A stretch of DNA of 64,000 bases from Rhodothermales bacterium. GTDB taxonomy: Bacteria; Bacteroidota; Rhodothermia; Rhodothermales; VXPQ01. The stretch covers positions 2,782,406-2,846,405 of the forward strand of contig OZ252093.1 in the NCBI GenBank assembly GCA_965248175.1, read 5' to 3'. The stretch's first letter is position 1. Each line of letters starts with the position of its first letter. The position numbers were made by a program, and so were the translations under genes. Shown here piece by piece: positions 1 through 11,169 of this stretch. Under the pieces are notes generated by a model. It saw only the letters and a list, made by a program, of their open reading frames with translations. It did not search any database and was not told where the DNA came from.

Positions 1-2803
1 CCGCACGGTCGAGAGCTTGGCGAACCCCGTCCCGGTATGCCTCGTTGGCTGGCAGAAACGACTTGTTCTTGAACCGCTCAAAAATATCCTCGGCCTGAGC
101 GATCTGATCTGAAGTGAGTGTGCGCGGGTCTAGGACCGTCAGACGGGGCAGCTGAGTGATCGTGAGAATCGCGCGGCCCTGCTGCTGTCGAGAGCCGATC
201 CACCAGAAGGAGAGAAGCCCCAAGGTGGTATTTGCCCACAAGACCAGAGGAAATGTCCACTCGTCTTGCTCTGGAATGAAATTGGGCCATGCTCGGCCGC
301 CAATCGCTTTATCTGGTGTGAGGCAGGCGGTGAGGCTTTGCGAATTGATTTGGAAATCGAGGTTAAAATGCAGTCGGGAGGCCACGCGATTCCAGACCTT
401 GACTGCATGATCGTCGCAGCCGGAACGCACCACACCTTCGCGATCGGGCGGAACAACCAAACCCCGTTCGCACTCGGCGTCGTGGCTCCACAGCGCCGGG
501 TATTGCGGCACCCCCTGAACGGGAATGATATCAAAGGGGCCTCGCGGCGATCCATTGCTATTCTTTCCGGAAATGTCGCGGTGATGAAATCCCCGCTTGC
601 CCAGAGAATCAAGGCAAGTTATAGACAGTCGGGCGGAATAGCCCCAAGGCAATCGGAGTATCCCTTCCGCTAAGCCAAGAGCGGTATCAGCAAGCGTGGT
701 TTCGCGGAGGAACGCGCAGCCGCCCTGGCTCAAAGGGGCACGAATGTACGTACCGATAATCTCGCAGTCACCCACGTAGAGCCGCCCTTGTCGATCCTGA
801 GACGTCAGCCGACGCACCGCCCGCGCCATTTCGAAAGCCTCCGTAAGACTGTCCGGCCGATGGGAGAGGTTAACAAACAGGGCCTCTCCACATTTAGAGT
901 CGCATCCAGAGCAACGCTTGGTGGCCACCACAAGAGCCTCGGCCATACCGGTATCGGCTGAAAAAGCCCGGTCCGTCTGGCCCCCATGGGCTGCAATGGT
1001 CAGCACAGTGAGATGCTCGTACTCGCGTTCCAGTAAACTTCGCGCATCTTCCCAGGAACTACCGCTCACAAATGCTGCTGGCAGTACGAGCGCAAGAACA
1101 CCGCCCGGTCTGGTCTTGACATGGGCAAGATCTATGAAATTAGAAGCCAGCCCGGCGTTGCCGTGACCAGCTATGCTTCCACTCTTCTTCAGCTTGGCGC
1201 ATATCCCCTTTAACCGAGCACCCATTTGTCGCTGCTCGTCTTTGCTCGTACTCAACCCGGCAAACGACGGTACCGGGACCGACCCCTCTATACTTTCGTG
1301 ATTACCCGGCCGGGTAAACGGAGGATTCATAATCACCAGATCAGCCGCTCCCCGGGGAAGAATCATGTCCTGACTCCAGTCGGTTTCCACATCCGCACCC
1401 GTGCCTTGCGCCCTCCGAACGCCGGTTCCGAACAGCGACGGTGCATCGTCATATTCAATCAGGTCAAGGGCACCCAAGGCCATGGCCTGCCGTTTTTCCT
1501 TGCTTTGCTGTCCGTAGGGCAGTGTGTGGACGCGGGTGCGCTCAAAGGTCGTACCCGGATGGGTACTCGACAGCATGGATGCGGTAAGATGCGTTGCGGC
1601 GGGCATAATATCGGCGGCAACGAGAACGCGCTCCATCATCTGCCTGTGCAACCCCTGATCGTCGCCGCCTGTTTGCCTATAGCGTAGCGTCAGAGCACGG
1701 TATGTGGCCGAGAGCAAGGTACCGGTGCCACAGGCAAGGTCGGCGAATTGGAGAGAGACAAGAGCGTTCGGATCGGACCAATCTGTTTCCGCATCGAGGC
1801 GAGACACCGCTAACTCAGCGAGCAGAGCCGCCGATGTCGGTAGGGTATAAAACGTGGCAAGAAACTTCCGGTCGGCAATGAGCCGCTGAAACATGCGCCC
1901 GGAGAGGTCATGCAAGGTCGTAGCCCCAAGACCCGCCAGATCGCTGGCTGCCTGAGCAAGACGGTTGAGCACCGCATTCGCCGTACCGGCGGGAATCGGC
2001 CTGAGCAGATCGGAAGCGATATGAAAGATCGGATAGTAATTGATGTGGTCAAGGATATGTTGCCAGCAGGCAAGCAAGCGACTCTTGTTTACATCGTTGG
2101 TACCGGAGCTGCGTAGTTCATCGACAGTGGATATCCCGTGCGCTTCAACGATAGCGGTATGAAAAACGAGCGCGTTGGCGACGATGGCCATGGCCATGCG
2201 CGAGGTCTGCTCGCCGTCCTCCTGGTGTAGGGACCGCGCCATTTTTTCCAGAGTGCGAGCGCCAGCCGTTTCGCGCAGTTTGCCGGCCGCCTCGCCGATA
2301 CTCTGTTCCAGAATATTCGTCCCCTCGGCGAGTAGCCGCTCGGACAGCGAGACATTTTCAATGCATCCCGCGAGATCGTTGACGCTTCCTGCAAGCCAGC
2401 CTGTGGCTGGCCAGCGCACGGCAGCGCCCGCTTCTTGTAGTGAGTACGTGCAATAGCGAAACTCGGCGGCTTCGATATGCTGCTCCAAATCTGCCTGCGG
2501 CGCCCCACTCAGTTCCAGCGGAATTTGCACAGCGATGGTCTGCTCGATCCGATCTCCTGTTTGTGACAGGAATTTGCCCAGACGCGCTTGCGCATCTGCT
2601 TCCACAGTATGTGCCGGTTCAAACTCCGTCTCCAGAACAACCGGGATACCGCCCGGCGGGCGAATAACTATGTCTGGACGAAGAGCGGACTCGCGAAAGA
2701 CATCCTGTTGCTCCACGCCGGTCCGGTCGCGCCACTGCGGATGCTTGCTCCGCAGCACGTTCAGTAACGGAACGTTGAAAGCGACTTCGTTGGTTTTAGG
2801 CAC
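1..2803 (-). CDS. Large gamma-class N6-adenine DNA methyltransferase. The C-terminus runs off the left window edge. Possibly a type IIG/IIL-like nuclease-methylase fusion.
   Basis: This gene is absent from the ORF track because it has no in-window stop codon. My own minus-strand translation is open from the TAA at 2833..2831 down to base 1 (about 934 codons). The first in-frame start candidate is GTG at 2803..2801. SAM motif I 'FADLACGTGTLLSA' lies at about 1720..1745. Catalytic motif IV 'LVIMNPPFTRPG' has NPPF encoded at 1327..1316. The N-terminal 'RPDIVIRPPGGIPVVLETEFEP' is a weak PD-(D/E)xK-like pattern. Confidence 0.8.
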   Translation of the reverse strand, partial: MPKTNEVAFNVPLLNVLRSKHPQWRDRTGVEQQDVFRESALRPDIVIRPPGGIPVVLETEFEPAHTVEADAQARLGKFLSQTGDRIEQTIAVQIPLELSGAPQADLEQHIEAAEFRYCTYSLQEAGAAVRWPATGWLAGSVNDLAGCIENVSLSERLLAEGTNILEQSIGEAAGKLRETAGARTLEKMARSLHQEDGEQTSRMAMAIVANALVFHTAIVEAHGISTVDELRSSGTNDVNKSRLLACWQHILDHINYYPIFHIASDLLRPIPAGTANAVLNRLAQAASDLAGLGATTLHDLSGRMFQRLIADRKFLATFYTLPTSAALLAELAVSRLDAETDWSDPNALVSLQFADLACGTGTLLSATYRALTLRYRQTGGDDQGLHRQMMERVLVAADIMPAATHLTASMLSSTHPGTTFERTRVHTLPYGQQSKEKRQAMALGALDLIEYDDAPSLFGTGVRRAQGTGADVETDWSQDMILPRGAADLVIMNPPFTRPGNHESIEGSVPVPSFAGLSTSKDEQRQMGARLKGICAKLKKSGSIAGHGNAGLASNFIDLAHVKTRPGGVLALVLPAAFVSGSSWEDARSLLEREYEHLTVLTIAAHGGQTDRAFSADTGMAEALVVATKRCSGCDSKCGEALFVNLSHRPDSLTEAFEMARAVRRLTSQDRQGRLYVGDCEIIGTYIRAPLSQGGCAFLRETTLADTALGLAEGILRLPWGYSARLSITCLDSLGKRGFHHRDISGKNSNGSPRGPFDIIPVQGVPQYPALWSHDAECERGLVVPPDREGVVRSGCDDHAVKVWNRVASRLHFNLDFQINSQSLTACLTPDKAIGGRAWPNFIPEQDEWTFPLVLWANTTLGLLSFWWIGSRQQQGRAILTITQLPRLTVLDPRTLTSDQIAQAEDIFERFKNKSFLPANEAYRDGVRQALDRA

Positions 2804-3220
2804 CGGGGTGTTCGGGCCGCCTCGACCCGGTTAGGAAATTGTTGTTTGCAGGATACGCTGTTGAGGGTGCGGTTGTCAAGCGAACGATATGGGGCGTTGT
2901 ATATGGAAATTGAAAAGGGACTTTCTGCTGGGTACGGGCCTGTTTTTCGGACATTCCGCATTTTTTGCCGCTTCACGCAGGCCCAGACAGAGCAGATTCC
3001 GCATCACTTCTTCGTTGAGGAAGGCCAACCGTGCAACCGGCACCATTACAGGACCGCACCTATATTCGGACAACATGCGGTCTGTAAAAAGCCCCCGGAT
3101 CCACCGTTAGACACGGACAAGGGGACCGGAGGAAAGGAAAACAGAGAGAGTTCTCTTTAATTGGAAAGATTTGGATGAGATGAGGATGTAATCTTCGCCA
3201 GGATCGGCTGGTCCATTTGA

Positions 3221-3472
3221 CTAACCGACATGTTGACCATGCGGTTTATAATTTAATACTCTACTGATATATTTTCCTCGCGACTGCCCCGGCGCGGTAA
3301 ACGCCTGCCAAACTTGAGGCGGACACGCAGAATACCGCCATTCAACGCCATCGTGAAAGCGTACATAAATCGTCTCAGTTTCCGGGTCATAGGCCTCGGC
3401 AACGATCCGGCTGGAACCGGTAACAGGAATCCACTCAATCATCTGTGACCTCGTAAGTTTCGCGACATTCAA
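3221..3472 (-). CDS. KTSC-domain small protein
   Basis: 'IEWIPVTGSSRIVAEAYDPETETIYVRFHDGVEWRYSACPPQVWQAFTAPGQSRGKYISRVL' fits the KTSC pattern (S-S-x-I..YD...L.V.F..G..Y.Y..VP..V...). The start is either TTG 3472 (4-nt overlap with the HerA stop) or ATG 3442 (26-nt spacer). Confidence 0.7.
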   Translation of the reverse strand: MNVAKLTRSQMIEWIPVTGSSRIVAEAYDPETETIYVRFHDGVEWRYSACPPQVWQAFTAPGQSRGKYISRVLNYKPHGQHVG

Positions 3473-5232
3473 TCATCCGCAACCTCATAAGTTCCACGCC
3501 ATGCTGTCAGGGCGGGACCAACATCCGGTACTAGAGGTTCTTGACGCCAAGGGGCCAGAGATGGATCGTCGGCAAGTGGCTTCGGGTTGGGTCTATCAAA
3601 GAGTACCCGGGCAGGCAGGATCATAGATTCTCCGCTAACTACTCCCTCACCGGTACGTAGCGATGGCAGAACAGCGGCCAAACCTGCAATTGCATCCGGT
3701 AGCGCCGCTCGAATTGTATTTTGATCCTCAGAGTTCGAAAGGCGCAGGGCCACCAAGGTTCCGCACTGTGCCAGAGCGGTGTCCGGTAGCTCCGTAGGGC
3801 GCTGGGTGACGAGCAAGAGCCCGACACCGTATTTCCTTCCCTCTCTTGCAATTCTATTCGCAGAATCACGAGTCAACATGCTTGCGCTGTCACCAAGGTA
3901 TCGGTGAGCTTCTTCCAATACTACGAGAACAGGGCTGGGGCGCCCAATGCCCGGTCCTCCCAAATTGCAACGGAGCGATATCTCAAAAATCAGATTAAGA
4001 ACGACACCGATCGCGAGATCGGCAGCAGCAGATGGAACTCCGCTGAAATCAAGCACTGATATGGGCCGAACGCCACCAAGCCAATCCTGCATTACTTTGA
4101 CCAACGGATCATCACCTTGCGGCTCACCCTTGGGCTCCTGAAAAAACCGAAGCTGTGGATCAAGAAGGCCGAGACGGAACATATCCGGCATGGTCCCATA
4201 GGTACCGTGAAACGGCCCCTTGTGCGGAGGCTCACTGCCAGGACCATAAGGTTTAAACGTCGCTGACCGCAACGTGTTTGCATCACCGGCGTTGGTCAGA
4301 CAAACAGTTGTCGGGTCCGCCTTGCTTTCGAGGGTCTCGTTGTTTTTGAAATCAAGTTGATGCCAAACCGCCCGAATATCAAACGGTACTGGCGTGTCGG
4401 CTGTAACAGCTGTCGGATCAAGTTTGAGCCAATCGGCAGCCTCTACAAACTTGCGACGAGCAGCAGTCACAAGTTCGGTATAGCGTCCCACGAATGTCGC
4501 ACTGCCCGATGATCCAGAAAAAATGTGCACAATGTCAGCCGCCGGGAGCGCCCAGAACGGGACACGTAACTGATCTCCACCTGTGGCAAGAACGCTTTTG
4601 ACAGAAGCATTACCCTCCAATGCTTGTGCGTACTCACCGTGCGGATCGATAACCACGATATTTGCCGCTTGCCACCCCCCCTCTACGAAGCTCTGCAATA
4701 AAGAAGCGACAACGCTGGTCTTCCCAGAGCCCGTAGAGCCAACGATGGCTGCGTGACGGACGACGAAGCGCGAGATATCCACACAAACTGGAACTTCCTC
4801 GGTAGCAGCTAGACGGCCCAGTCGCAGATTTTGATTGTCGGGGTGCGGGAATACCGACCTAAGCTGACTTGGCGTTGCGAAGTGTACAGGATCATCAAGG
4901 CCAGGATATGAACCCACACCGCGCTGGAAACGCTCCGTGCCGCGATCAATCTCACCAAGTAACTGAACTTGTAGCCAGCGCTCATCGTGTTGAACCGACT
5001 CCGCTGGTTTGATTGGACCAGAAAGTTCAGCAATGCCGACAAGGGAAACCGTGGCGACGAGGTCAACAAGGCCCTGAGGAATTCGAACGAGTGAGCCGAT
5101 CTGACCCACAGGTTGAAGGTGACCACGATAAATTGGTGCTGTCCCTGCGAGGTCAGGATCAAGTGCCACTGTAACAGTAGCCCCTAGAACATGACGTACT
5201 CTCCCAATACACGTTGGATCGCGCTCAGTCAT
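3469..5232 (-). CDS. herA: HerA-like (DUF87) ATPase, the HerA component of a SIR2-HerA defence pair
   Basis: 587 aa. There is an N-terminal HAS-barrel-like segment, Walker A 'VGSTGSGKTS' and Walker B-like 'VLVVLEEAHRY'. The start ATG at 5232 overlaps the SIR2 stop by 8 nt (ATGACTGA). Confidence 0.85.
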   Translation of the reverse strand: MTERDPTCIGRVRHVLGATVTVALDPDLAGTAPIYRGHLQPVGQIGSLVRIPQGLVDLVATVSLVGIAELSGPIKPAESVQHDERWLQVQLLGEIDRGTERFQRGVGSYPGLDDPVHFATPSQLRSVFPHPDNQNLRLGRLAATEEVPVCVDISRFVVRHAAIVGSTGSGKTSVVASLLQSFVEGGWQAANIVVIDPHGEYAQALEGNASVKSVLATGGDQLRVPFWALPAADIVHIFSGSSGSATFVGRYTELVTAARRKFVEAADWLKLDPTAVTADTPVPFDIRAVWHQLDFKNNETLESKADPTTVCLTNAGDANTLRSATFKPYGPGSEPPHKGPFHGTYGTMPDMFRLGLLDPQLRFFQEPKGEPQGDDPLVKVMQDWLGGVRPISVLDFSGVPSAAADLAIGVVLNLIFEISLRCNLGGPGIGRPSPVLVVLEEAHRYLGDSASMLTRDSANRIAREGRKYGVGLLLVTQRPTELPDTALAQCGTLVALRLSNSEDQNTIRAALPDAIAGLAAVLPSLRTGEGVVSGESMILPARVLFDRPNPKPLADDPSLAPWRQEPLVPDVGPALTAWRGTYEVADD

Positions 5233-6412
5233 ATTCCTTTCTGTTCACTTCCGTCCGAGACTCCCCAATAGCGTCCCTGAGCAACTCCTTCAAAACACCG
5301 TCACCGCTTTGTTCACGTGTCGTGCTTCGAGCCAAATATCTGGCAAGATTACAGAAGTTTCGGAGGGCAAACTGTTCATTCTCCCAAATATCCAGTGGCG
5401 CATTGTCCGGTTTATCCCAATCCGCACGGACACCGCCAATAATTGCCTCACGACCAGAGACCACTTGGATGTTAGGGATGGTAACTGCACGGTCAGCCAA
5501 TATATCCGGAATCTCCGAAAAGCAGAAGGCTATAAACTCGGAACGCTCGCGGCGCACTGCAGCATTGAAAATTTGCTCATTGAGATGTTCGTCACCGAAC
5601 GAATATCCAGAGATCAGCATAAGCGTCTCTGGCTGATAGAGTGCCCTTCTCAATCGGTCCTGAAGTACGACAAAGGGGACACGCCGCGATTCCTCGTACT
5701 TTGCATCAGACGGATAAATGGCCGCCGCAAGACCTTCAGGAACCGGGTGGCCTAGTCGGACAATTTGCCGGTCTCCTTTCCAAGACCAGTTCACGGAGCC
5801 GTGCAGTTTCCAAAGCCTGACGAAAAACGCAGGAACCACTTCAGCATCCGGTCCTGGCAATCCCTCGACCAGTTCCGTATGAAATCTGGCTTCCAGAGAT
5901 CCTACAAAACCATCGAAGTAGGGCACACGCATTTCCTCAAGAGCAGTCTCTAACAAAAGGTCATAGTTTACCGTGAATAATTCGACAGGTAGATGGTAAT
6001 TGGCGCGTGCTGCCCAGACGGCCAAACACATTGCGGCAGTTGGATCCACACCATCAACGCCATCAACTTTCAGCGCCCTGACAATCGCCTGACAGACAGC
6101 GGCATCCAATTTCTCCGCATCCCTCGCCGTCAGGTCATTCACTGTTTCTTCGCCGGAGATAAGTGCCGAAATGCGACGGAGGCGGCTTAACGCCGCCTCG
6201 AGGTTTCGGCCCGTTAGTTGGCGCTGGAAGGCGGCATGTTCGTCTTCTTGGATATCTTCCAGAACATACTGCTCAAGCGCCTTCACATCAGGTAGGCCAC
6301 ACGCCTTCCCAACCCCGGCACCTAGGAACGCACATACGTGACGAGACCGAGTAGCGAGCTTAGTGCCAAGAGACGTGACAAAACTCAATGGGTTGTGATC
6401 TGGCATGTGCAC
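5225..6412 (-). CDS. SIR2-family (SIR2_2) NADase-like protein, the SIR2 component of a SIR2-HerA defence pair
   Basis: 395 aa with 'FLGAGVGKACGLP', 'FTVNYDLLLE' and 'KLHGSVNW', which are the hallmark SIR2_2 motifs. It lies directly upstream of, and overlaps, herA. The start is GTG 6412 or ATG 6406. Confidence 0.85.
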   Translation of the reverse strand: MHMPDHNPLSFVTSLGTKLATRSRHVCAFLGAGVGKACGLPDVKALEQYVLEDIQEDEHAAFQRQLTGRNLEAALSRLRRISALISGEETVNDLTARDAEKLDAAVCQAIVRALKVDGVDGVDPTAAMCLAVWAARANYHLPVELFTVNYDLLLETALEEMRVPYFDGFVGSLEARFHTELVEGLPGPDAEVVPAFFVRLWKLHGSVNWSWKGDRQIVRLGHPVPEGLAAAIYPSDAKYEESRRVPFVVLQDRLRRALYQPETLMLISGYSFGDEHLNEQIFNAAVRRERSEFIAFCFSEIPDILADRAVTIPNIQVVSGREAIIGGVRADWDKPDNAPLDIWENEQFALRNFCNLARYLARSTTREQSGDGVLKELLRDAIGESRTEVNRKEYD

Positions 6413-6600
6413 TCTGCTGGCAAGAAGCGCCGGCTCATTGGTTCCTTACTGAATACATGTCCACCCGGCGGAAAGTAACTCACCGAACGAACGCTAAAGA
6501 ACATGGGTCAGTTTCGCATCGGACGATTCCTAGAGACGGTTTGTCCTGATTGGACAGATTTTTGCAAACCATTTCTCCATTACTATCATGCGTCACATCC

Positions 6601-8322
6601 TTACAACCCGAACAGTTTGGTTGCTTGTTTAACCAGATTCTCGGTTCTGGTTTTTATCTGTTCGACACCCCAACTTTGAGAATTAGCCAAATCTTCATTT
6701 ATACTTAGGCCATTTTTATATCCAACCCATCGGCCTTGTGCATCAGTACGATCCCGCTTTTCCTCAAAGCCCTTGTTTCCAAGAGCACTATTGAATCCGG
6801 AAATGGTCAGATTTCCCAGTTTGTGGACATACGTCTGTTGAGCCTCCTTCGCCTTGTGCTCATCCCCATCAGCGATCATGGTCATCCATGGTTGAGGTAT
6901 GTTTTCACCCTGTGGAAAGATATGCTCAATGGTCCAGACAGACCTTCCCTTTCCCCCAACGGCCCATAGGTCAACCCAAGTTTCTTTGGTCATTTCTTGT
7001 TCAGCCAAGGCACATAGAACAAATCGGGTGACACCTGAATTTTCCACGTAAATTGGCCCTTCCAATTTGCTCTGGAATATATCATCAGATGCAGATACAG
7101 CCACGAGTTCCTCCTTAATAGCCTGCGTAACAGCTATTCCATGCAGGCTACTTATTTTATCTATAATCGTCATGAAAAGTCGAGTTAAATCCCGTGTAGG
7201 CGGCGTGTCTGTGAGATTACGACGGACAAAGAAACGAACCAGAAACGCAACCGTCGAGGCTAATTGCTTGTTGTCCAGTTGCAAATCTTCCTTACGGACA
7301 AGCAGGTAAAGCATCAGCAGATAGGATGGCGCTCCTTGGATGCGTGCGAGATTCTTGAGCGGTATCTCAAGTCCGTTGAGGGCATCGTCCTGATTGCGAG
7401 AGAGAATCAATGAGTACTTTTGACCAGCGATGCCGATTTTTGTCAGGCAATCCTTGGCGTCATCGTTAATAAGCTTCTCGTATATCTGAATCAGGTTGGA
7501 TCGGGTAGCCACGGGCACCTTATACAACGCTTTCAGTTCATCCTTAAAAGCGTTGTAGTATTGGCGGAAGAAACGCTCCTGAGTGCCATAGTCATCGCCT
7601 AAGTAGTTCAGCAAGCGGTTCCAGCGCTCATAATAGTGATCCACCTTGCCGGACTCAATGGATTCCAGTCTTGCCAAGAGCTTGTTCTTGATCAGATCAA
7701 CCGCCGTTAATGGCATACCTCTATTGTTCAGCGATTCGAACAGGGTGTAGGCATCGGCATGACTCGCCACCTCAATTTTGACCAAGCAAGCATAGCTGAC
7801 CTTTTCCAGAAATTCCAGGATGGTCCCAAGCCCGTCGCCCCCCTCATCTGTCATTTCATTGATACGGCCCTGGAAATATCGGTAGGCACGGAAAATTTTG
7901 CGGTTCCCCGCATAAGCCGGACGATCGCTCCCACTGATAATCCCCGTCTCAGCAAGAACGGCCCGGTAATCATTCTGGTTGTTGTTCTGAATCTGTGGTA
8001 TCAGGCGGATCTGTTTATCGCCTTTCTTCAAAATCAGCTTACGCTTTAAGTTGGTTTGCTCGACAAGCTGTTCAGCATCCAAATTGGATTCATGGCTTTT
8101 CAAGGCATGATAGACCGAAGCAAAAAGCAGCGAGAGCGTCATCAGTCGCTGCTGGCCATCGACTAGTTCCAGTTTCTGAACCAATAGCGCGTCTTCCGAC
8201 TGATTGATACAGATAATCGAACCGAGGAAATAGCCGGGGTCGTTATCAAGAACATCGTCAAACAGGCTTTCCCACTGATTCTTCCCCCAAGTGTATTCGC
8301 GCTGGTATCGAGGGATTGTATA
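6601..8322 (-). pseudogene. GmrSD-like type IV restriction endonuclease (DUF262 N-terminal plus DUF1524/His-Me C-terminal). This is the body of the gene, separated from its first 21 codons by an IS insertion.
   Basis: The frame stays open upstream of the track's TTG 8184 and reads '...YTIPRYQREYTWGKNQWESLFDDVLDNDPGYFLGSIICI...LVDGQQRL' (DUF262 signature). No ATG/GTG/TTG start precedes it before the in-frame TGA at 8391..8389, inside the IS. The C-terminal 'WTIEHIFPQ...HKLGNLTISGFNSALGNK' is DUF1524-like. Confidence 0.85.
8315..8322. repeat. Target-site duplication (left copy)
   Basis: ATTGTATA lies immediately outside the left IR and is identical to 10898..10905. Confidence 0.9.
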
Positions 8323-8345
8323 GGGAATTATATACGAAAGTAACC
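8323..8345. repeat. Terminal inverted repeat (left) of the IS1595-family transposon
   Basis: GGGAATTATATACGAAAGTAACC is the exact reverse complement of 10875..10897. Confidence 0.9.
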
Positions 8346-8354
8346 GCTTTCGGA

Positions 8355-8564
8355 TCAGAGCATATCCTCCAACGGCGGCGGTTTTTTGTCATCGGGCGAT
8401 ACCGCACCCCGATCCTTCTTTATCGGCGTTACGATGCACTTCGCCAGTATCTCTGGCGTCGTGTCGATCTTCAAAACGCGCGTCTCCGGGCGACCTCGCT
8501 TTTTCGATTCGGGTTTGGGCTTTTTCGGTTTCATGGTCTTCGCCTTAGGTCTGATATTGTTCAC
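8355..8564 (-). CDS. Small lysine/proline-rich basic protein with an AT-hook-like 'KKRGRPE' core (function unknown)
   Basis: 69 aa from GTG 8564 (GTGA overlap with the endonuclease stop), or 59 aa from ATG 8534. It ends 9 bp from the left IR. No recognisable fold. Coding status is supported mainly by the stop/start overlap. Confidence 0.45.
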   Translation of the reverse strand: MNNIRPKAKTMKPKKPKPESKKRGRPETRVLKIDTTPEILAKCIVTPIKKDRGAVSPDDKKPPPLEDML

Positions 8565-9160
8565 TTACCCCTTTGCCGTCGTTCTCTCACGATCTCTTTC
8601 ATCAGCGTAAACGGTTCACTGTAGAATGGTGGTTCTAAGGGCCACGAAACAGGAACACTTGTCGCCAATAGGTGCATCCTCTGGTAATCCGAATACTTCC
8701 GATGTTTGGAACGCGGCAGATGCTCATTTCTGATAAATCCAAAGTGCCATTTATGGTCAAACTCAAAGAGATTAATCGCCAGTATATCGAATTTTCCTGC
8801 CAGCAGGCACGTTGTCTGCAACGTGGTTCCGTTGGGCAGTGTAACAGATCGTCGGTCGCTCGCATCGACTTGGCATCGTCCGAAATAGTCGCCGTTGTTA
8901 GTTCTCACCGAACGGGTTTGCAACGACTTCACCTCGACAATGATCGGTTGGCCTTGGTATTCGAAACTGAAGTCTGCTGGCCGTGATCTGTCGTGATCGT
9001 CGTATCGAATTAGTTTGTGAATTCGGGCATCTGAAAATACGGTGCGCTGTAACTTGTACTCAGCCAAAAACCCAATCAGTATCCCTCGGATGCTTGGACG
9101 CTCTGCAAGTACAACGTTCAAGTCATCGTAGGAAATACCCCAGTCTTCCAGAATTCCCAT
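8561..9160 (-). CDS. Type II restriction endonuclease (PD-(D/E)xK fold), cargo of the IS
   Basis: 199 aa. 'PADFSFEYQGQPIIVEVKS' gives a D...E-V-K catalytic pattern. The start overlaps the methyltransferase stop (TAATG at 9162..9158). Confidence 0.65.
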   Translation of the reverse strand: MGILEDWGISYDDLNVVLAERPSIRGILIGFLAEYKLQRTVFSDARIHKLIRYDDHDRSRPADFSFEYQGQPIIVEVKSLQTRSVRTNNGDYFGRCQVDASDRRSVTLPNGTTLQTTCLLAGKFDILAINLFEFDHKWHFGFIRNEHLPRSKHRKYSDYQRMHLLATSVPVSWPLEPPFYSEPFTLMKEIVRERRQRGK

Positions 9161-9873
9161 TATGGACAGCGGCGTCGCGGACTTCGCCCGTTGGTTTTGA
9201 TGAATACGAGAAAGTAAGAATGATTTTTCCTGGCGTGTTCCTGTCGAAGGATCCGACTGACGGCGGGTTTATTGGTGCGGACTAATACGAACAAGTCTTT
9301 TGCGTAGAACCCTATCGACTCGTATTCATTGATCAACTCGACATGTGTGAGATTTTGCAGATTGGCACTTACTTCATCTTGACACTTGACAATGAACACG
9401 CCAAAATCGCGCAGAACTCTAAACGCCTCGGCACCAGCCTTGAAATACAGGTCCAATACAGCCGCGTGATACTTCGGCACATTATCCTCGATGGTCTTTC
9501 CGTTCGAGTAGATTTCCCTAAATGCAGAATAACTGCCGCTGCCTGCTAAATGAGACTGCTTTTTGCGATACAGCCCCTCCATGTATGGGGGATCAAGTAC
9601 CACACAGTCGATTGAGCCGTCGTCGTAAGGCAAATCTCGGCAATCCACCCCCGTCTTTATATCGGTCGCAAGCAAGTTGTAATCGTCTGCGTTGACATTC
9701 TTCCAGAATATCCCCTTGCCGTAGGTTACGTCGGCAATCGTTGAACCAACAGGTACGTGCAAATCGAAGATTTTAGGAAACAGCGCATCGTTGCAGCCTA
9801 AATGTGCACTACATATAATATCGCTGGTAGCGATACCATCTGGAGATTTTCTTTGTACAGCCACACCCATCAT
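9160..9873 (-). CDS. DNA methyltransferase (N6-adenine or N4-cytosine, DPPY type), cargo of the IS
   Basis: 237 aa. Motif I-like '[12 protein letters not shown]' is followed by motif IV '[10 protein letters not shown]'. The start ATG overlaps the transposase stop (ATGA at 9873..9870). Confidence 0.8.
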
Positions 9874-10802
9874 GCAATCAGGTCAGCATACCGGAGGCGT
9901 TTCTGATCCATGCCCCGGACTATTGCCGACATTTGGTCAAGAGTATCAAGTCCGCGAATGTTGTGCCGACCGGAGAACTCGTTGATGTACCGATGGAGAT
10001 GCTTGACGCTCACGTGGTGGTAAACACCCGTGATTCCCCGTTTCAACGTCGCCCAAAAACTCTCGATACCGTTCGTGTGGACTCGTCCACGAACGTACTC
10101 GCTGGCACTGTGTTTGACCGTCTCGTGGGCGTAGAAGTGTTTCAAGCTCTTGTATGCCTTATGGTCATCCGTGAAGACCGTTTCGCCATGCTGGACGCTC
10201 TCATGCACGAAGCCAGCGAGAGTTTCACCCGGTTCATAGCCAAGTGGACGCGCCTTGATCTTGCCGCCTCGCTCCCTGGCTCCCATGACGGTAGCCTTAC
10301 CCACCGTTCCACGTCCGAACGACCGCTTGTGCGCGTGTTTATTCCGTTTCTTGCCACCCACATACGTTTCGTCTACCTCGACGGTACCGACGAAAAGAGG
10401 GGCGTTCTCCACGAAAGCCTCGCGGACACGCTGGATCAGGTGCCACGCGGCTTTCTGCGTGATACCCAATTCCCGGCTGATCTTCATACTCGACACGCCT
10501 TTCAGGTTGGTCGTTGCCATATAGGTAACGATTGCCCATGCCTGAAAGCCCAGTTTGCTCGACTCCATTACCGTGCCCTTCTTGACGGAGAAGTGCTTCC
10601 GGCAATCCTTGCAACGCAGTGGCATGGTCGGGTGGGTACTGCGAACGGCCCGCATGCAACCGCAGTGGGGGCAGACAGGACCATCAGGCCAGCGTTGCTT
10701 TTCAAACCAGCGTTCGGCTGTATCGTTGTCGGGAAACATACGAAGAAGTTGAACAATGGTCAAGCCGGTTCTTTCGGAACGTCCGGGTGCGCGTTGTGCC
10801 AT
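9870..10802 (-). CDS. IS1595-family transposase (N-terminal zinc ribbon plus DDE domain)
   Basis: 310 aa. Motifs are 'CPHCG...[22 protein letters not shown]', '[10 protein letters not shown]', '[10 protein letters not shown]' and '[14 protein letters not shown]'. It is homologous along its length to the second copy at 51962..52933. Confidence 0.9.
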
Positions 10803-10874
10803 TTTCTTGCCTGGTTGCTTTCTGATTACGGTTACTATAATACCACATAATAATCAAAAAGTCAAGTGAATAAT

Positions 10875-10897
10875 GGTTACTTTCGTATATAATTCCC
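10875..10897. repeat. Terminal inverted repeat (right) of the IS1595-family transposon
   Basis: GGTTACTTTCGTATATAATTCCC is the exact reverse complement of 8323..8345. Confidence 0.9.
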
Positions 10898-10905
10898 ATT
10901 GTATA
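10898..10905. repeat. Target-site duplication (right copy)
   Basis: ATTGTATA lies immediately outside the right IR. Confidence 0.9.
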
Positions 10906-10968
10906 TACCACATTCGCTTCGATGTCGAAGAGCTGAGAGATTGGATAGTTATTTACGGATTTAATCAT
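10898..10968 (-). pseudogene. Detached 5' fragment (start codon plus 23 codons) of the GmrSD-like gene
   Basis: ATG 10968..10966 reads 'MIKSVNNYPISQLFDIEANVVYT' and runs straight into the IS right end. It joins in frame to '...IPRYQREYTW' at 8314 once the IS and one TSD copy are removed (71 + 1714 nt = 1785 = 3 x 595). Confidence 0.85.
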
Positions 10969-11169
10969 ATAACACCTCAAGAGTGATATTTCTATAGTTT
11001 GCGACGGAATGCTTCTTTTTTCCCTGCCATGATGTCGATGAAATCGGTGTTCCACTAACCATCGAAAATGGGCGTATCCGCTAAAACTGTGTAAGCGAAC
11101 ATACCTAATATCTGAAGCGACCCCCATATCCTGCAAGACACCTCATTTAGGCAGGGTATCAAGCTCCCC

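Follow-up and report, generated by a model that had tools for sequence, protein, structure and literature searches.

The 64,000-nucleotide stretch of DNA analysed here, called the window below (contig OZ252093.1 of the Rhodothermales bacterium assembly GCA_965248175.1, positions 2,782,406 to 2,846,405), carries a compact cassette of three genes, which encode a SIR2 protein, a HerA-type ATPase and a small KTSC-domain protein. The KTSC protein is the stand-alone counterpart of a module that is fused to the C-terminus of HerA in the SIR2-HerA system of Paenibacillus. With good confidence, the cassette can be read as an anti-phage SIR2-HerA-KTSC system of the Paenibacillus-type lineage, in which the free KTSC protein would serve as a split module bound to HerA. 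The genes and their limits are the following.

5225..6412, minus strand: SIR2 (SIR2_2) NADase-type effector, 395 amino acids, GTG start (Pfam, PADLOC, motifs)
3469..5232, minus strand: HerA-type hexameric ATPase, 587 amino acids, without a fused KTSC module (Pfam, PADLOC, motifs)
3443..3468, minus strand: HerA-KTSC spacer, 26 nucleotides, with a GAGG Shine-Dalgarno sequence (sequence)
3221..3442, minus strand: KTSC-domain protein, 73 amino acids, ATG start (Pfam KTSC, AlphaFold2, Foldseek, conservation)
3197..6412, minus strand: extent of the mobile three-gene cassette (end of nucleotide homology to the closest relative)

The structural model of the window KTSC protein (73 amino acids), obtained with AlphaFold2 (AF2), has a predicted local distance difference test score (pLDDT) of 93.2. 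In a Foldseek search of the PDB its top matches are 7X8C and 4RGI, with template modelling (TM) scores of 0.82-0.88 and a root-mean-square deviation (rmsd) of 1.5 Å, and the next matches are the HerA chains 8WLD, 8WIV, 8WOF and 8WJ3 (TM 0.77-0.82, rmsd 1.5-2.1 Å, about 72 columns). The match is good for a Paenibacillus HerA chain only if some 630 residues or more of it are resolved. The sequence of Paenibacillus HerA was rebuilt from the PDB alignment and then searched, which led to the native protein (P0241, 690 amino acids), for which PF13619 is listed. When this protein was scanned with Pfam, a complete KTSC domain came out at residues 628-685 (E 3.3e-23). An hhalign comparison of the alignment of stand-alone KTSC proteins with the fused C-termini gives 95.5% probability, and residues 4-63 of the window protein correspond to residues 624-681 of the Paenibacillus protein.

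The PDB numbering of Paenibacillus HerA equals the database numbering plus 6, as fixed by K173A/K167, and the KTSC domain thus spans PDB residues 634-691. It falls inside the 'unique C-terminal arm domain (aa 576-696)' described by Liao et al. (PMC11472057), and the name KTSC is absent from the text of that paper. The link between KTSC and Paenibacillus HerA rests on the fold search, on Pfam applied to the full protein and on hhalign. A preliminary description of the window, made from the sequence alone, had not known KTSC as part of SIR2-HerA and had considered it a possible new component; this is not supported, as Paenibacillus HerA already carries the domain in fused form.

The SIR2 protein matches Pfam SIR2_2 at 1.4e-12 and the PADLOC SIR2 model PDLC04093 at 1.7e-105, the latter over residues 5-368 of 395 against profile positions 4-389 of 395, and its motifs GAG31, N149-Y-D151 and H204 (KLHGS) are intact. 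HerA is recognized by Pfam DUF87 (2.9e-28) and HerA_C (8.4e-13) and by the PADLOC HerA model PDLC04105 (1.1e-127, residues 3-580 of 587), with intact Walker A, GSTGSGKT (165-172), and Walker B, VLVVLEEAH (435-443), motifs. The end of the SIR2 gene overlaps the start of the HerA gene by 8 nucleotides on the same strand. The locus agrees with the PADLOC-DB definition of SIR2-HerA: both models are matched, and the two genes are adjacent, co-oriented and intact in their catalytic motifs. The preliminary description had called the three open reading frames at these coordinates, with the same SIR2 and HerA motifs and the 8-nucleotide overlap, and had proposed a SIR2-HerA defence pair; every detail of the gene calls is borne out, and the PADLOC run agrees with the proposed pair. 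Both proteins score below the cutoffs of the corresponding NCBIfam models, SIR2 with 50.1 bits versus 500 for SIR2_antiphage (NF042942) and HerA with 209.1 versus 850 and 167.1 versus 800 for HerA_antiphage (NF042943/NF042944), and Paenibacillus HerA is likewise below the HerA_antiphage cutoff (237.9 versus 850). Phage resistance via NAD+ depletion is predicted for the window system from its homologues in Paenibacillus, Escherichia coli and Staphylococcus aureus, for which the literature documents it.

The third open reading frame matches Pfam KTSC (PF13619) at 7.4e-10, with 38.8 bits versus a cutoff of 25, in agreement with the domain named in the preliminary description; a PADLOC-DB search of the window proteins returned no model for a KTSC component. 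Two starts had been offered for this gene, and of these the ATG at 3442 is the better and almost certainly the true one, since a GAGG lies 6 nucleotides upstream of it and the homologues are nearly all exactly 73 amino acids long. With this start, and not the TTG that overlaps the HerA stop by 4 nucleotides, a gap of 26 nucleotides separates the HerA stop from KTSC.

By its closest structures and by its C-terminal brace the window system belongs to the Paenibacillus-type SIR2-HerA lineage. The solved structure closest to the window HerA is 8wiv (1.8e-99, the next best being 1.8e-62), and that closest to the window SIR2 is 8w9l (7.3e-41, the next best being 2e-12). Residues 6-580 of the window HerA align to residues 11-602 of the 696 amino acids of 8wiv. 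The brace (...DP..W...WR) is common to the HerAs of the window clade and to the short and the fused forms among the relatives of Paenibacillus HerA. The window HerA stops 7 residues past this conserved motif (...LTAWRG); short and window-clade HerAs in general end 4-30 residues past the brace, and the fused forms run on via a variable linker into KTSC, so that the split point lies directly behind the shared motif. The window HerA thus lacks the covalent fusion of the Paenibacillus type, and its KTSC module is supplied in trans.

Fused and split forms occur within the same lineage. The Paenibacillus locus encodes a SIR2 of 381 amino acids and a HerA-KTSC of 690 amino acids, with no separate KTSC gene downstream. 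Among 120 listed relatives of this HerA (54-81% identical), 16 are 683-703 amino acids long and contain PF13619, and the others measure 600-642 amino acids and are without it. Both of the two short forms that were checked are followed directly by a separate KTSC gene of 69 amino acids. In a rough neighbour-joining tree built on the HerA core the short forms are interspersed with the fused ones, and parsimony places the split state at the root with around 10 changes, a count that is approximate given the tree. Clearly, the split arrangement is common and fusion is recurrent, and the split form is probably both the commoner and the ancestral one.

The preliminary description had raised the possibility that KTSC is a conserved third gene of the system, and a survey of related loci supports it. 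One genome per GTDB species was scanned, which yielded 80 loci with HerA 51-91% identical to that of the window. Their hosts include Rhodothermales, Binatia, Acidobacteriota, Actinomycetota, Chloroflexota, Planctomycetota, Gemmatimonadota, Alpha-, Beta- and Gammaproteobacteria and the haloarchaea Natrinema and Natrialba, and the closest relatives of the window cassette are metagenome-assembled genomes of Rhodothermales and Binatia. SIR2 lies upstream of HerA in all 80 loci, and a KTSC open reading frame follows HerA immediately on the same strand in 77 of them. The remaining three have trivial causes: in one the contig stops within HerA, in another KTSC has one in-frame stop (L072), and in the third HerA is itself disrupted. 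Look-ups started from KTSC homologues found HerA upstream in four of four cases. Two plasmids, one of Sphingomonas and an IncHI2 plasmid of Enterobacter hormaechei, keep the triad at a HerA identity of 33-36%, and on them RefSeq already lists a 'KTSC domain-containing protein'.

The junction between HerA and KTSC has the geometry of translational coupling, with a 4-nucleotide overlap in 22 loci and an 8-nucleotide overlap in 19 (41 together), and gaps of 1-13 nucleotides in most of the others. The KTSC gene is under purifying selection, the median proportion of non-synonymous differences (pN) being 0.27 versus 0.81 for synonymous ones (pS, saturated) over 2850 pairs, and pN/pS being about 0.17 between the window and locus L001. 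Pairwise distances of KTSC correlate with those of HerA (r 0.61, reached by 0 of 2000 Mantel permutations) and of SIR2 (r 0.68); the distances of KTSC thus track those of both partners, and the three genes therefore travel together without shuffling. Partial correlations that hinted at KTSC following SIR2 over HerA were too noisy for a protein of 73 amino acids and were set aside.

When the flanking open reading frames of 81 loci were clustered, only HerA, SIR2 and KTSC were common to the loci, and no single genuine flank gene was seen in more than 6 of them. Other frequent clusters, considered as a fourth conserved gene, proved to be shadow open reading frames inside SIR2 or HerA. At the nucleotide level (blastn) the window is 86% identical to L001, and the match is confined to window positions 3197-6406. 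Homology to the closest relative ends 24 nucleotides past the KTSC stop on one side and at the SIR2 start on the other. Window positions 3197-6412 are thus a horizontally mobile three-gene cassette.

The KTSC subfamily of the window has the invariant residues W4, W35, C40 and W45. Its best-conserved residues, W45, F48, S54, R55, G56, I59 and L63, lie on a helix-linker-helix face. Alignments to 4rgi and 7x8c show the face to be conserved as well in KTSC proteins that have no relation to HerA. Such a face would fit a protein-docking site or a nucleic-acid-binding site alike.

Some of the loci depart from the common arrangement. A Rhodococcus qingshengii plasmid (L097, 4995-5213) carries an orphan KTSC gene, 64% identical to that of the window, and neither SIR2 nor HerA lies within 5 kb of it; the copy is either the remnant of a decayed cassette or a sign that the subfamily can exist alone. 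In L098 (1572-4508) SIR2 and HerA are called as a single product of 978 amino acids and in the near-identical L099 (1580-4508) the two genes are separate and overlapping, so that the single product either stems from a frameshift in the assembly or is a true fusion of SIR2 and HerA. A Fic-like motif (HPFADGNHR) is encoded after a truncated HerA in L077 (~7450-8100), and in L101 (2573-4491) a DDE transposase stands in place of the 5' part of HerA and KTSC is retained. In the haloarchaeal copies, an ADP-ribosylglycohydrolase gene lies directly after the triad (L103, a Natrinema zhouii plasmid, 5116-6093, and also L051/L052), annotated as two fragments, the first of which overlaps the KTSC gene. 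This neighbour is of interest because SIR2 effectors have been proposed to ADP-ribosylate their targets (PMC9503650).

Within SIR2-HerA, KTSC is lineage-specific, judging from the loci scanned or inspected. At HerA identities of 29% or less, the SIR2-HerA loci of Rhodovastum, Serratia and Piscirickettsia contain no KTSC in any frame, and none is annotated in the SIR2-HerA loci of Klebsiella and Raoultella or in one DUF4297-HerA locus. The Enterobacter-type triad has no DNA match in complete E. coli genomes, and phage-borne copies of the window KTSC subfamily were not found in viral contigs.

The searchable literature deals with SIR2-HerA throughout as a system of two genes, and a 2026 classification of E. 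coli Sir2-HerA types mentions neither KTSC nor a third gene (PMC13434337). The sole link between HerA and KTSC found there is in section 3.7.1 of Iyer, Burroughs, Anantharaman and Aravind (2022; PMC9503650), where, among HerA-like ATPase conflict systems, variants coupled to a gene for a KTSC protein are mentioned in one sentence on unpublished observations; the KTSC variants in question have an endoDNase instead of the sirtuin. The coupling has thus been noted once before. No example of a nuclease-HerA-KTSC locus was found, the one DUF4297-HerA locus mentioned above being the locus inspected for it. What is new here is the identification of the distal arm domain as KTSC, together with a split arrangement that is universal in the clade of the window and apparently the commoner state overall.

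By homology with the Paenibacillus complex (PMC11472057), the window HerA would form a hexamer in a split-spiral state, and ring-shaped SIR2 oligomers would dock on its N-terminal beta-barrels via the SIR2 alpha1 helix. Formation of the complex is expected to license the NADase and nuclease activities of SIR2 and the ATPase and helicase activities of HerA, and the outcome would be an abortive-infection-type defence by NAD+ depletion. Because its gene is translationally coupled to HerA, KTSC would probably be present in roughly one copy per HerA subunit. The free protein most likely binds non-covalently outside the HerA hexamer, at or near the RecA-like domain of the neighbouring subunit, where it may stabilize the hexamer or the split-spiral state, or may bind nucleic acid or a trigger. 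For Paenibacillus, the structural paper describes an arm that 'wraps the neighbouring RecA-like domain' in trans, and it ascribes the stabilization of the split spiral to this arm (PMC11472057). In an AF2 model of the Paenibacillus protein the arm has two short brace helices (587-596 and 602-606) and the KTSC module, joined by a linker of low confidence (604-623). Since the module is resolved in several cryo-electron microscopy chains despite its low-confidence tether, it is very likely docked on the hexamer.

Several observations weigh against this assignment and against the binding proposed from it. The window KTSC protein is about 24% identical to the fused domain, and neither phmmer against the PDB, nor the KTSC profile against the PDB, nor pairwise BLASTP links it to Paenibacillus HerA. 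The structural paper ascribes the trans contacts 'especially' to alpha19-20 and the linker between them and includes no arm deletion (PMC11472057). Counting helices in the AF2 model of the Paenibacillus protein leaves alpha19-20 either as the brace helices, which are kept in the window HerA, or as the two helices of KTSC, the count depending on whether 3-residue helices are included and on the choice of the 'alpha7-alpha8' loop. Binding of the free KTSC protein to HerA is a prediction from homology. The split status of the short Paenibacillus-type HerAs is drawn from 2 of about 100. The KTSC gene of L072 has one in-frame stop beside an apparently intact SIR2 and HerA, and, taken with the orphan copy of Rhodococcus, this makes loss or independent existence of KTSC possible.

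Among other explanations, KTSC could be an autonomous sensor or regulator that binds nucleic acid (phage DNA, RNA or DNA ends) and signals to HerA or autoregulates the operon, not a structural piece, and its fusion to HerA would then merely reflect functional linkage. This is unlikely, although it carries appreciable weight: the Aravind group has called KTSC a DNA-binding domain (PMC9503650) and an RNA-binding domain of lysyl-tRNA synthetase (PMC7824862), small stand-alone KTSC proteins are widespread (507 representatives, nearly all of 70-160 amino acids), generic KTSC families are present in phages (e.g. phrog_3292), and the helix-linker-helix face, kept as it is in proteins unrelated to HerA, fits a generic ligand-binding site. 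The searchable literature yielded, however, no documented case of a KTSC protein that binds nucleic acid, and the repeated fusion to HerA, the strict 1:1 linkage and the coupling argue for a stoichiometric subunit over a transcription factor. A sensory role is also compatible with that of a split module, since KTSC could be subunit and binder together. A further proposal, which appears quite improbable, makes the free KTSC protein a dissociable switch, which would bind to the HerA hexamer or be released from it, perhaps under the influence of phage DNA ends or of a phage protein, and so gate the transition from the split spiral to the active state and hence the firing of the SIR2 NADase. If this were true, stand-alone KTSC proteins of phages, phrog_3292 for instance, could be decoys or competitors directed against the lineage, and KTSC would act in trans as a regulator of HerA-type machines in general.

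That KTSC is an inhibitor, an antitoxin-like brake on a toxic SIR2-HerA that is activated when the free protein is released or degraded during infection, is very improbable. In its favour, the operon ends with a small, translationally coupled gene, an arrangement known from many toxin-antitoxin-like defence modules, the Paenibacillus complex in its apo state is reported to be autoinhibited or primed (PMC11472057), and KTSC is retained where an insertion sequence (IS) breaks HerA (L101). A labile antitoxin would, however, normally be intolerant of permanent fusion, whereas fusion is frequent here and the Paenibacillus system, in its fused form, defends actively (PMC11472057); the KTSC pseudogene of L072, beside its apparently intact partners, also speaks against a strict need for detoxification. 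As for a hitch-hiking unrelated gene or a mis-called open reading frame without a role, the want of a PADLOC model for KTSC and the two-gene treatment in published SIR2-HerA work would be in line with it. Its recurrence in 77 of 80 loci that have unrelated flanks and span phyla and domains, the purifying selection and co-divergence, a Pfam score above threshold, a confident fold and the recurrent fusion to HerA leave this idea practically no probability, and conservation and fusion together effectively refute it.

Although SIR2-HerA is modelled as two genes, most of the sampled loci of this lineage encode a third gene of 69-73 amino acids. In consequence of the split arrangement, two-gene annotations and constructs leave KTSC out, and clones of the two large genes alone would lose a module that is built into Paenibacillus HerA. 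KTSC (PF13619) is a widespread family with solved structures and no known function, and its identity with the distal part of the arm in 8WIV/8WLD provides the first concrete structural context for it. The natural polymorphism of fusion and fission is a ready-made experiment on the role of the arm. The finding reveals no new defence principle.

The cassette lies in a low-GC island (window ~3000-11000), in which the guanine and cytosine content is 45-57% versus about 60% around it, and which holds four defence-type modules and an IS. Such an island is typical of a horizontally acquired defence island. Its other features, and the gene at the edge of the window, are as follows.

6601-10966: GmrSD-like type IV restriction gene, split by the IS
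8323-10897: IS1595-family element, 2575 bp, with perfect 23-nucleotide terminal inverted repeats and an 8-bp target-site duplication, TATACAAT
10802-9870: transposase of the IS
9873-9160: N6/N4 methyltransferase, passenger of the IS
8561-9160, minus strand: open reading frame of 199 amino acids, passenger of the IS; base 9160 is common to its start codon and to the methylase stop codon
2-2803, minus strand: open reading frame of at least 934 amino acids, running off the window edge, directly downstream of KTSC

When the two halves of the GmrSD-like gene are joined, MIKSVNNYPISQLFDIEANVVY is followed directly by TIPRYQREYTW and the DUF262 motif is restored. The insertion of a methylase-bearing transposon into a modification-dependent restriction enzyme looks like the resolution of a conflict between the two. 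The passenger of 199 amino acids has no match in Pfam, PADLOC or NCBIfam and is a candidate for a novel restriction endonuclease partner of the methyltransferase.

The open reading frame of at least 934 amino acids has no Pfam match and shows weak PADLOC matches to a type II methyltransferase, mad2 and PglX. A 52%-identical homologue neighbours the triad of L028 (Candidatus Multivorans) but is read from the other strand. The gene at the window edge is probably one more restriction-like defence gene, outside the cassette. A reading of window positions 1-3200 as a non-coding or RNA region is rejected, since this open reading frame lies there, and an Rfam scan gave no match anywhere in the window. 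In unrelated hosts, large pairs of a UvrD helicase and a PD-(D/E)XK nuclease, or of an SbcC/SbcD-like ATPase and an exonuclease, were seen beside the HerA cassettes (L083 6263-9761, L100 4885-9222, L081 6186-9830 and L096 4594-7371); these are probably neighbouring defence systems of the same islands.

Compared with known systems, the cassette is most like that of Paenibacillus sp. 453MF (8WIV, 8W9L, 8WLD; PMC11472057), for whose validation as a defence system that paper cites earlier work. Both have SIR2, a HerA with beta-barrel, RecA-like domain, helix bundle and C-terminal brace, and KTSC, in the same order; the catalytic motifs are conserved, and the two KTSC modules agree in fold and are homologous according to profile comparisons. 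The two differ in that KTSC forms residues 628-685 of the 690-amino-acid Paenibacillus HerA and is the product of a separate gene in the window, where the flexible linker of about 27 amino acids is absent; the HerA cores are about 33% identical, and the hosts are different.

The E. coli SIR2-HerA/Nezha (8J4U, 8SU9) and S. aureus Sir2-HerA (8YHO/8YHX) systems similarly have a SIR2 NADase on a HerA hexamer and act by abortive infection (PMC11514289, PMC13434337), but they are far more distant from the window system (HerA 5.7e-28 and 3.8e-21, SIR2 2.6e-09 and 2e-12). With the variants of PMC9503650 the window cassette shares a HerA coupled to a KTSC gene and, unlike them, has a sirtuin and not an endoDNase; that paper gives no data on the coupling and no tie to the Paenibacillus 'arm domain'. 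The KTSC proteins 4RGI (Yersinia pestis YPO2434) and 7X8C (Methanolobus vulcani) have the same fold and belong to the same Pfam family as the window protein. At about 24% identity to them, the window subfamily is set apart by its own invariant residues and by its strict linkage to HerA.

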